A DNA stretch of 64,000 bases from an uncultured Bacteroidota bacterium (GTDB taxonomy: Bacteria > Bacteroidota > Bacteroidia > AKYH767-A > JABDAW01), in NCBI GenBank assembly GCA_903844645.1, contig CAIMUP010000013.1:1428-65427 (forward strand). Direction: 5' to 3'. This document shows positions 15,547-15,950 of this stretch, one piece after another. Position 1 is the first letter of the stretch. Every line of letters begins with the position of its first letter. The notes beneath the pieces were generated by a model, which saw only the letters and a list, made by a program, of their open reading frames with translations, was not told the DNA's origin and ran no database searches. The position numbers were made by a program, and so were the translations under genes.

Positions 15547-15574
15547 ACACACACACACACACACACACACACAC
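15547..15574. repeat. (AC)14 dinucleotide microsatellite
   Basis: ACACACACACACACACACACACACACAC read directly. It lies in the divergent intergenic region between the oxidoreductase (-) and the 16077 ORF (+). Confidence 0.95.
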
Positions 15575-15721
15575 TAACAAATTTTTTGAAATAACCAAAT
15601 CGGAGAACACTTTTTCTGGTTCGGTTCAAAAAATTTCGTTTTCCTTTTCTAATCTTTCATTAAAGTTTCCAAAAATTTCCGCGATTTTTCAGGAATCTTG
15701 GTCAAGTCGCCAGAGTTTTGA

Positions 15722-15950
15722 CCAAAGTTTCATACGCCCCAGCCAAAGTGTGCCGAACTTCAGCCAAAGTTTTGGAAACTTTGACCAAAGTCCAGCGACT
15801 TTGACCAAAGTAGATGAAGATTCGGTTGAGGTTTCTGAAACTTTGACCAAAGTGGGCTTCACCGTGGTCAAAGTTTCTGCTTTCTCGCCCAAAGTTTCCG
15901 GAAATTCCTCCAAAGTTTCCCAAAAATCCCCCAAAGTTTCTGAAACTTCG
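15722..15950. repeat. degenerate 21-bp phased repeat, about 11 units, each anchored on CCAAAGT(T)
   Basis: 'CCAAAG' recurs at 15722, 15743, 15764, 15785, 15806, 15847, 15868, 15889, 15910 and 15931, all on a 21-bp lattice with one unit skipped. The region is open in frames on both strands. Confidence 0.85.

Follow-up and report, generated by a model that had tools for sequence, protein, structure and literature searches.

The 64,000-nt stretch of DNA analysed here, referred to throughout as the window, derives from a lineage of uncultured freshwater Bacteroidia, as indicated by its T9SS and SprB domains and by GyrA matches, GyrA being 77% identical to the nearest other clusters and ~70% identical to that of many 'Bacteroidia bacterium' MAGs. 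A scan of GTDB species representatives with the oxidoreductase encoded at the locus recovered only homologues of ~55% identity, distributed over many phyla, and no close relative. The oxidoreductase gene opens an operon on the minus strand, followed by genes for a PMT_2-type glycosyltransferase and an MFS transporter. Divergently, on the plus strand, the gene beginning at position 16077 encodes a 233-aa protein and is followed by a 56-aa ORF, the gene for a SprB-repeat/reprolysin protein and a gene for a 241-aa protein. The features of the locus, in window coordinates, are as follows.

13754 to 15334, minus strand: FAD-dependent oxidoreductase of the PRK07208 family, divergent, first gene of its operon
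15408 to 15415, plus strand: near-consensus Bacteroidota -7 box TATTTTTA, 33 nt upstream of the ATG at 15441
15441 to 16058, plus strand: ORF of 205 codons (213 from stop to stop), candidate translated leader ORF or low-complexity protein
15485 to 15492, plus strand: -7 box TAATTTTG, a perfect match to the Bacteroidota consensus, 55 bp upstream of the AC tract
15547 to 15574, no strand assigned: perfect (AC)14 microsatellite of 28 bp, (AC)17 in other assemblies of the same strain
15575 to 15695, no strand assigned: decayed leftward extension of the array, with TAAAGTTTCC at ~15660 and GGTCAAGT at ~15700 on the extrapolated lattice
15696 to 15950, no strand assigned: degenerate 21-bp array of ~11-12 units, idealised unit GAAACTTTGACCAAAGTTTCT, CCAAAGT core conserved
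15778 to 15791, no strand assigned: perfect 14-bp dyad ACTTTGACCAAAGT, first of three
15798 to 15811, no strand assigned: perfect 14-bp dyad, second of three
15840 to 15853, no strand assigned: perfect 14-bp dyad, third of three
16077 to 16778, plus strand: gene downstream of the array, 233 aa, member of a small family of unassigned function, N-terminal long helices and C-terminal FN3-like beta sandwich
17126 to 19681: T9SS-secreted SprB-repeat/reprolysin protein of 851 aa with a T9SS sorting domain

The family of the 233-aa protein comprises ~60 representatives, P0254, P0255, P0256 and P0257 among them. The protein matched nothing in Pfam, NCBIfam or PHROGs, and scans of metagenome and viral sequences with it likewise returned no match. 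Its structure is predicted confidently (pLDDT 92.6), and the combination of helices with an FN3-like sandwich argues that it is not a DNA-binding protein. The downstream genes plausibly form a module of surface or secreted proteins, and phase variation usually controls functions of this type.

The original prediction, made from this DNA alone, drew attention to a 28-bp AC tract upstream of the oxidoreductase/GT39 operon as a substrate for phase variation, and such a tract is indeed present, perfect over its 14 repeats and 213 bp from the ATG of the oxidoreductase gene. Heterogeneity of its length between strains, put forward there as a check, is observed as well, in contrast to the invariant length that would have spoken against the prediction. 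Independent assemblies of the same organism were retrieved by exact-protein look-ups of the two flanking genes. One of them (L001, ERZ18667900) differs from the window by two SNPs and one indel in an alignment of 17,952 bp; the other (L002, ERZ27313596, megahit k141) has one SNP and the indel of L001 in 10,794 aligned bp. In both alignments the sole indel is the AC tract, which is (AC)17 in the two assemblies and (AC)14 in the window, a 6-bp difference between two alleles only, seen in assemblies rather than in reads, for which assembly or PCR stutter is a possible source and in which both (AC)17 assemblies may derive from related samples. Such a tract is extraordinary in a bacterium: among repeats whose unit measures 2 nt or more, no other reaches seven copies in the window or in ~88 kb of loci from its relatives, and 1.38 Mb of unrelated bacterial loci contain none that does. 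The AC tract is a genuine slipped-strand hot spot, hypervariable between assemblies. Four Logan contigs end inside the tract; these breaks were rejected as decisive proof of heterogeneity because a tract of at least 31 nt breaks a k=31 graph by itself. A second candidate for an SSR combined with an array, at 34498-35323, was also rejected, as its (AAC)n is the coding sequence of a poly-Q stretch in a DUF4834 protein.

To the right of the tract, approximately 11 CCAAAGT units had been described on a strict 21-bp lattice. An 11-unit array is confirmed, but the lattice is not strict because it carries one 1-bp slip, between 15786 and 15806, and one unit, expected at 15827, has lost the motif. CAAAGT starts at positions 15723, 15744, 15765, 15786, 15806, 15848, 15869, 15890, 15911 and 15932, with steps of 21, 21, 21, 20, 42, 21, 21, 21 and 21 bp, and nine of the ten sites read CCAAAGT, the remaining one TCAAAGT. 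Weaker remnants of the array reach leftwards to ~15655. The 21-bp periodicity of the region is picked up by a blind autocorrelation scan, and CCAAAGT, for which 8.4 occurrences are expected, is present 20 times in the window, nine of these copies lying inside the array. The CCAAAGT array is far beyond chance. On the minus strand, six of its units have the sequence AAACTTTG, which differs from the -7 consensus at one position.

The units were also said to be far more diverged than those of the other arrays, and they are, with a mean column variability of 0.41 compared with 0.05-0.18 in nine other arrays of the window; three composite arrays, however, reach 0.30-0.40. Among the simple arrays, the CCAAAGT array is the most decayed. 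Outside the core, pairwise identity of the units is 0.40, against 0.26 for random sequence. Decay has not been uniform. Mismatches affect 5 of 77 positions in the 7-nt core and 63 of 154 in the 14 flanking columns (Fisher P=1.4e-8), a pattern of conserved core and decayed flanks that supports the earlier view of an old array which is still constrained. By codon position the mismatches are distributed 22, 23 and 23, without bias, and the 1-bp slip shifts the reading of the motif from F-D-Q-S to L-T-K-V with the motif still present. This even spread and the survival of the motif across a change of frame argue for a constraint on the nucleic acid rather than on an encoded peptide.

The idealised unit is a near-perfect 20-bp palindrome, and the three matches to the 14-bp dyad found in the window (0.2 expected) all lie inside the array. 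Of the 11 units, 10 retain the right half-site but no more than three to four the left one, a pattern which fits a directly repeated site better than a symmetric operator. As in operators of the iteron type, a phased core is more conserved than its spacers, at a spacing of 21 bp or two helical turns; a cognate DNA-binding protein or occurrence of the motif at other promoters was not found, the dyad being absent elsewhere in the window. A regulon sharing the ACTTTGNNCAAAGT dyad was rejected on the same ground, with no copy in the window outside the array. As in the 21-bp minisatellites described below, the units are arranged in tandem (21-bp steps, one of 20 bp); they are not near-identical, matches in the other arrays amounting to 78-96%, and they do not lie 3' of a gene. 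Unless ORF 15441-16058 is taken as a gene, the CCAAAGT array is the sole one between two divergent gene starts (a 5'-5' gap). A CRISPR array was rejected, since a conserved element of 7-10 nt recurs in tandem units on a 21-bp lattice and there are no 24-48 bp repeats with unique spacers. No Rfam covariance model matched anywhere in the window at its gathering score; the only matches of an E-value search of 15300-16120 were of low complexity and to eukaryotic families, for example via a GU repeat, and as all were below their gathering scores they were discarded.

Conservation of the lattice in relatives, which the original prediction had put forward as a check, was found at one orthologous locus, L096, the only such locus reached with DNA. 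Its downstream gene product shares 52% amino acid identity with the 233-aa protein, and the gene is preceded by a 21-bp array with the unit GGRAATWTTYYGAAAACTTGC that ends ~120 bp short of the start codon; in the window this distance is 127 bp. The two arrays have the motifs GAAA(A)CTT and GGAAAT in common, whereas the spacer between array and gene is unalignable. A related 21-bp array is conserved in position between the window and this one relative. The L096 contig ends inside the array, so that its sequence stops short of any AC-tract position. In L096, too, a frame is open through the array up to a stop in an ATGA overlap with the orthologous gene (P=0.06), and the common GGA AAT ... AAA motif is read in the same register by this frame and by the ORF of the window. 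On the oxidoreductase side, of the closer relatives that a protein database yielded, L091-L095 showed no synteny and the contigs of L089 and L090 stop 158 bp upstream of the gene, the 158 bp of L089 not being alignable with the window beyond ~30 bp.

The CCAAAGT array is one of 13 intergenic arrays in the window, with periods of 21, 42 or 63 bp and a different unit in each, amounting to a density of ~200 per Mb. The only array of another period is a single 41-bp palindromic repeat. According to a survey, most bacteria carry fewer than 4 satellites per Mb (PMC6749651). Like arrays are present in relatives identified by their oxidoreductase (L089, 82% identity; L091, 73%), by GyrA (L097, at least 90%; L104, 77%) and by an aminotransferase (L101, at least 90%). 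None was found in 22.6 kb of L105, whose GyrA is 71% identical, and none in 80 unrelated loci. The 21-bp array trait is limited to the clade, and no description of 21-bp intergenic arrays in Bacteroidota was found in the searchable literature. Heptamer arrays also occur in relatives L091 and L101; 21 is three times seven.

Local sequence is the source of the arrays. The 51545-51690 unit is similar to the final 21 nt of the gene upstream of it, and L101 has only a 3-bp gap at this place. The unit at 49949-50152 corresponds to the descending arm and T-tail of a terminator hairpin; the L101 counterpart of this region holds a different repeat, with a conserved promoter-like flank downstream. Several general explanations of the arrays were considered and rejected. 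Coding heptad repeats are inconsistent with three arrays that lack any open frame and with the lack of a consistent period-3 variation. Formation of hairpins is not universal, as 6 of 21 units beat shuffled sequence at p<=0.02 with a mean z-score of -1. Selection for intrinsic curvature in all arrays is not supported either, the real units lying at a mean percentile of 0.41 relative to shuffled ones. Under a wedge model any 21-bp array is predicted to be macroscopically curved, curvature following from the 21-bp geometry alone, and arrays make up nearly all of the 40 most curved of ~3,000 overlapping 168-bp segments, which is weak evidence.

The original prediction placed both repeats in a divergent promoter region, which is doubtful. 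In many genes of the window TAnnTTT[GA] begins 28-45 nt upstream of the ATG, and the spacing of TATTTTTA to the ATG at 15441 is typical of these; TAATTTTG is the only perfect -7 match within 15300-16100. These plus-strand boxes lie upstream of the tract, and none was found between the array and gene 16077 or elsewhere within 300 nt upstream of that gene, which suggests that the AC tract and array are probably transcribed on the plus strand. For the minus-strand oxidoreductase operon no canonical promoter was found, with no -7 box within 300 nt upstream.

Both the AC tract and the complete array fall within ORF 15441-16058, whose end is 18 nt short of gene 16077. Shuffling of the flanks shows the ORF to exceed its expected length (P=0.0006 with mononucleotide and 0.008-0.010 with dinucleotide shuffling). 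Of the 12 other arrays in the window 11 show no such excess of ORF length, and the remaining one, at 28647-29205, is marginal (P=0.018). Gene callers annotate the ORF as a 207-aa product in both (AC)17 assemblies. Repeat numbers of 11, 14, 17 and 20 alone keep the 15441-16058 ORF open, all others leading to TAA directly after the tract or to termination after six more codons. The two alleles seen are both in frame, an outcome with a 1/3 chance. Codon usage in the non-repeat part is poor, with an LLR of -0.02 that falls within the lowest 1.6% of real-gene windows. The product matched nothing in Pfam or NCBIfam, is not similar to the L096 ORF at the protein level (E=5.4) and, in exact-sequence look-ups of the 205-aa and 207-aa versions in a protein collection, returned no record. 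A leader ORF that is translated but unconstrained in its sequence would reconcile the excess length with the poor codon usage.

Combined, these observations lead us to favour, tentatively, a frame switch that works by strand slippage in a translated leader ORF, together with a phased array of core motifs that is under selection. Both repeats would lie within the transcribed 5' part of a plus-strand operon consisting of ORF 15441-16058 and the genes for the 233-aa, 56-aa, SprB/reprolysin and 241-aa products. Gain or loss of AC repeats would turn translation of the leader ORF on or off, and the resulting loss of ribosome transit and coupling, or polarity, would switch expression of the downstream surface/secreted-protein operon. 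The CCAAAGT array would be an old member of the clade-wide minisatellites of 21 bp, or two helical turns, born from local sequence, in which the units have decayed and the 7-nt core and two-turn phase may have been kept by selection on the nucleic acid. It would present phased protein-binding sites on the same face, either on the DNA or on the leader RNA. Polymorphism of the tract, a conserved core, an array in the orthologous position of one relative, an ORF longer than expected and the restriction of 21-bp arrays to the clade are observed; translation of the ORF, a factor binding the array and, ultimately, phase variation of expression are what we infer from them. The array could also be a neutral relic, with its core preserved by partial re-amplification.

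Neutrality may extend to the locus as a whole, which we consider somewhat unlikely. According to this explanation a mutational process of the clade spawns 21-bp duplications in non-essential DNA, the array is drifting, the AC tract is unselected and neither is regulatory. Arrays with unrelated units do fill most intergenic regions, including convergent ones in which no promoter is expected. Their units derive from local sequence, turn over between relatives with at least 90% identity of the adjacent proteins and are not systematically hairpin-forming or curved, and two of three strain differences fall in the tract/array region, suggesting relaxed constraint. Uniform decay, however, does not explain a core with 6% mismatches beside flanks with 41%, nor the presence of a related array in the same place in L096, where the neighbouring protein has no more than 52% identity and the spacer DNA is unalignable. 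It similarly leaves unexplained the excess length of the ORF and the persistence of a perfect dinucleotide tract of 28-34 bp that is found nowhere else.

An unlikely explanation is that the tract sets the spacing of a distal promoter, as in nadA, with the array acting as phased upstream sites for a regulator or nucleoid protein that serve the oxidoreductase operon or the plus-strand promoters. Each AC unit would rotate the array by ~69 degrees with respect to the promoter, producing graded or on/off transcription, a mechanism for which there is a precedent (PMC2791445). The tract separates the array from the oxidoreductase gene, whose ATG is 213 bp away, and this position, like the two-turn lattice of the core motif, is consistent with such a switch. 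The three perfect 14-bp dyads are typical of dimeric regulators; however, the retention of right half-sites in 10 of 11 units and of left ones in three to four is a misfit to a symmetric dimer. By the same wedge model, again as weak evidence, the 3' half of the array is among the ~1% most curved 168-bp segments, and the idealised units of both orthologous arrays fall in the top 4-5% of shuffled-unit arrays. The six minus-strand AAACTTTG units would offer near-consensus -7 elements, whereas upstream of the oxidoreductase gene there is no canonical -7 box and the only related upstream sequence, the 158 bp of L089, diverges beyond alignment after ~30 bp. Moreover, the change from 14 to 17 repeats (6 bp, ~206 degrees) is uninformative with regard to phase, and the 1-bp slip indicates that phase is not strictly held.

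That ORF 15441-16058 is instead a functional low-complexity protein of (His-Thr)n and 7-residue repeats, in which the 21-bp lattice is no more than a coding repeat of the heptad type and AC variation alters only the length of the His-Thr stretch, is very improbable: the ORF is long, well placed and preceded by a promoter-like box and its observed alleles differ by 6 bp, but the repeat is read in two frames within the one ORF (F-D-Q-S, then L-T-K-V), its variation follows no codon-position pattern, codon usage is poor, and there is neither a homologue nor similarity to the L096 ORF.

The frame switch in a leader ORF has its closest counterparts in the SSR contingency loci, which drive slipped-strand phase variation in Haemophilus, Neisseria, Campylobacter and Helicobacter (PMC11868660, PMC3315296). 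The (AC)14 tract resembles these in being a long, perfect and slippable tract with a unit in the range of 1-6 nt whose length differs between near-identical strains, here as two alleles between assemblies. It does not lie between -33 and -7 elements but inside ORF 15441-16058, whose length speaks for coding and whose codon usage speaks against it, and as in such loci it is located 5' in an ORF, one repeat number in three is in frame, and secreted/surface genes lie downstream. Unlike these loci, which belong to host-adapted pathogens, it is found in a free-living freshwater member of the Bacteroidia, its AC dinucleotide unit is uncommon, the ORF resembles a low-complexity leader rather than an effector, and its switching is a prediction from sequence. 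The well-studied cases of phase variation in Bacteroides work via invertible promoters.

If spacing were the mechanism, the locus would resemble nadA of Neisseria meningitidis, in which a TAAA tract outside the core promoter is flanked by protein-binding elements and repeat number sets spacing or phase (PMC2791445), as here a repeat tract lies outside the core promoter beside candidate protein-binding elements. It differs from nadA in its 2-bp unit and in having an 11-unit phased array instead of two operators, and its core promoter and binding sites are putative.

Iterons and plasmid centromere arrays, such as F sopC and R1 parC, consist of phased copies of a core motif, often with a dyad, that load one DNA-binding protein. 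The CCAAAGT array is similar in its tandem, helically phased copies of a short core motif. In contrast with these systems it is chromosomal, has no cognate Rep or Par gene nearby and is one of 13 arrays of unrelated sequence in 64 kb. Units of the MIRU type are ~40-100 bp long and belong to few sequence families. The arrays of this clade, unlike MIRUs, each have a unit of their own, a period fixed at 21 bp or a multiple of it and a density of ~200 per Mb; like mycobacterial interspersed repetitive units and other bacterial VNTR minisatellites (PMC3635867), they are intergenic and intercistronic tandem repeats that occur at many loci per genome, sometimes with an open frame between the flanking genes. 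The TAACTGA intergenic heptamer direct repeats of Beggiatoaceae, Cyanobacteria and five Bacteroidetes (PMC4679880), and the cyanobacterial STRR elements, similarly show a lineage-restricted spread of short intergenic tandem repeats with a suspected regulatory role, but there one sequence is common to the loci, whereas here the period is common and the sequence is not.

The locus combines known kinds of element, an SSR contingency locus and a bacterial minisatellite, in an unusual host and genomic setting. Phase variation driven by SSRs counts as a hallmark of pathogens adapted to a host. If the frame switch is real, a length-variable (AC)n tract preceding a T9SS surface/secreted operon in a free-living lake bacterium would extend the SSR strategy to environmental Bacteroidota, with phage or grazer pressure as the likely selective agent. 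More speculatively, and with little expectation on our part, the clade may own a 'ruler' process that amplifies any local sequence, such as gene ends or terminator arms, into arrays of exactly two helical turns and so fills most intergenic regions, with some arrays, this one among them, later exapted as phased binding platforms; at this locus such a platform would be joined to a dinucleotide tract that gates the passage of ribosomes through a leader ORF of unconstrained sequence, and the combination would be an SSR phase switch with no described counterpart in Bacteroidota. The 21-bp arrays in any case pose the question of what measures two helical turns of DNA in these cells. Because its core is conserved, and because its position is conserved in a relative, the CCAAAGT array is the one place at which selection on such a repeat is visible, and it would be the natural entry point to the factor that reads the arrays.

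Besides the CCAAAGT array, the window contains 12 further intergenic tandem arrays, a density of approximately 200 per Mb, in which the period is 21, 42 or 63 bp throughout while the repeat units are unrelated to one another.

Intergenic tandem arrays with a period of 21, 42 or 63 bp (window positions)
1859-2044, intergenic array
4111-4341, intergenic array
8711-8919, intergenic array
28847-29093, intergenic array
37951-38213, intergenic array
41289-41426, intergenic array
43869-44152, intergenic array
49949-50152, intergenic array
51545-51690, intergenic array
54399-54722, intergenic array
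58018-58151, intergenic array
61985-62200, intergenic array

The same trait is observed at loci from five relatives, L089, L091, L097, L101 and L104. Arrays of this periodicity were not detected in the 22.6 kb of L105, from a relative at 71% GyrA identity, or in 80 unrelated loci, and no account of intergenic arrays combining these periods with locus-specific units was found in the literature.

Two arrays resemble the sequence beside them. The unit of array 51545-51690 (region 51480-51724) is similar to the final 21 nt of the aminotransferase gene upstream, and the 177-nt gap surrounding it is open throughout, in frame with both neighbouring genes. In L101 (11180-11320), which shares at least 90% identity in the aminotransferase, the two flanking genes are separated by only 3 bp. 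The array has therefore arisen recently, through amplification of local sequence within an operon junction. In array 49949-50152 (window 49914-50210), the unit CGGTCGGATATTTCYTTTTTC corresponds to the descending arm and T-tail of the terminator hairpin located upstream. The equivalent place in L101 (9760-9900) is occupied by another repeat, based on TGTTCAC, and the promoter-like flank CTGATTAACGGAAnAAAATATATCTTTG is retained in both the window and L101.

Array 28847-29093 (region 28647-29205) is contained within ORF 28713-29198, whose length exceeds expectation (P=0.018) and which stops 7 nt upstream of the following gene; a 197-aa protein with a weak match to the LuxR/GerE helix-turn-helix is encoded directly upstream. 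At 61934-62239, sub-arrays TGAAAGACTA... and ...TAGTCTTTCA lie in opposed orientation, forming a large inverted repeat with arms of 125 nt that are 86% complementary and separated by 56 nt. Only one array in the window departs from multiples of 21 in its period: at 34680-34861, 2.8 copies of a 41-bp repeat, composed of the strong palindromes TGTACACGTGTACA and AACACAGTTGTGTT, give a folding z-score of -6.8.

An AAC-rich tract at 35145-35188, reported by TRF as an imperfect (AAC)14, was considered as a second microsatellite switch and rejected, as it is ordinary poly-Q coding sequence in a DUF4834 membrane protein (87 aa, 35029-35292).

Only two SNPs distinguish the window from L001, essentially the same strain in another assembly, over 18 kb. 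One, at position 16053, turns the final sense codon of ORF 15441-16058 from ATT into TTT and lies inside the 742-bp gap; thus, two of the three differences, counting the AC-tract indel, fall in this gap. On one side, the orphan-looking 233-aa protein (16077-16778) matched no model in Pfam, NCBIfam or PHROG, belongs to a small family of approximately 60 cluster representatives and is predicted with high confidence to form long N-terminal helices and an FN3-like sandwich. On the other, the PRK07208-type oxidoreductase (13754-15334) is 50-56% identical to proteins of Acidobacteriota, Cyanobacteria/Melainabacteria, Planctomycetota and others, with just four nearer relatives found (68-82%), an identity pattern which suggests wide horizontal spread.

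Short heptamer tandem repeats (GTTTAAG, AGTGAAG, TTGAGAG and TGTTCAC) are also present in relatives L091 (11535-11588, 12988-13022 and 13255-13281) and L101 (9831-9867). They may have a connection with the 21-bp periodicity, 21 being 3 x 7.
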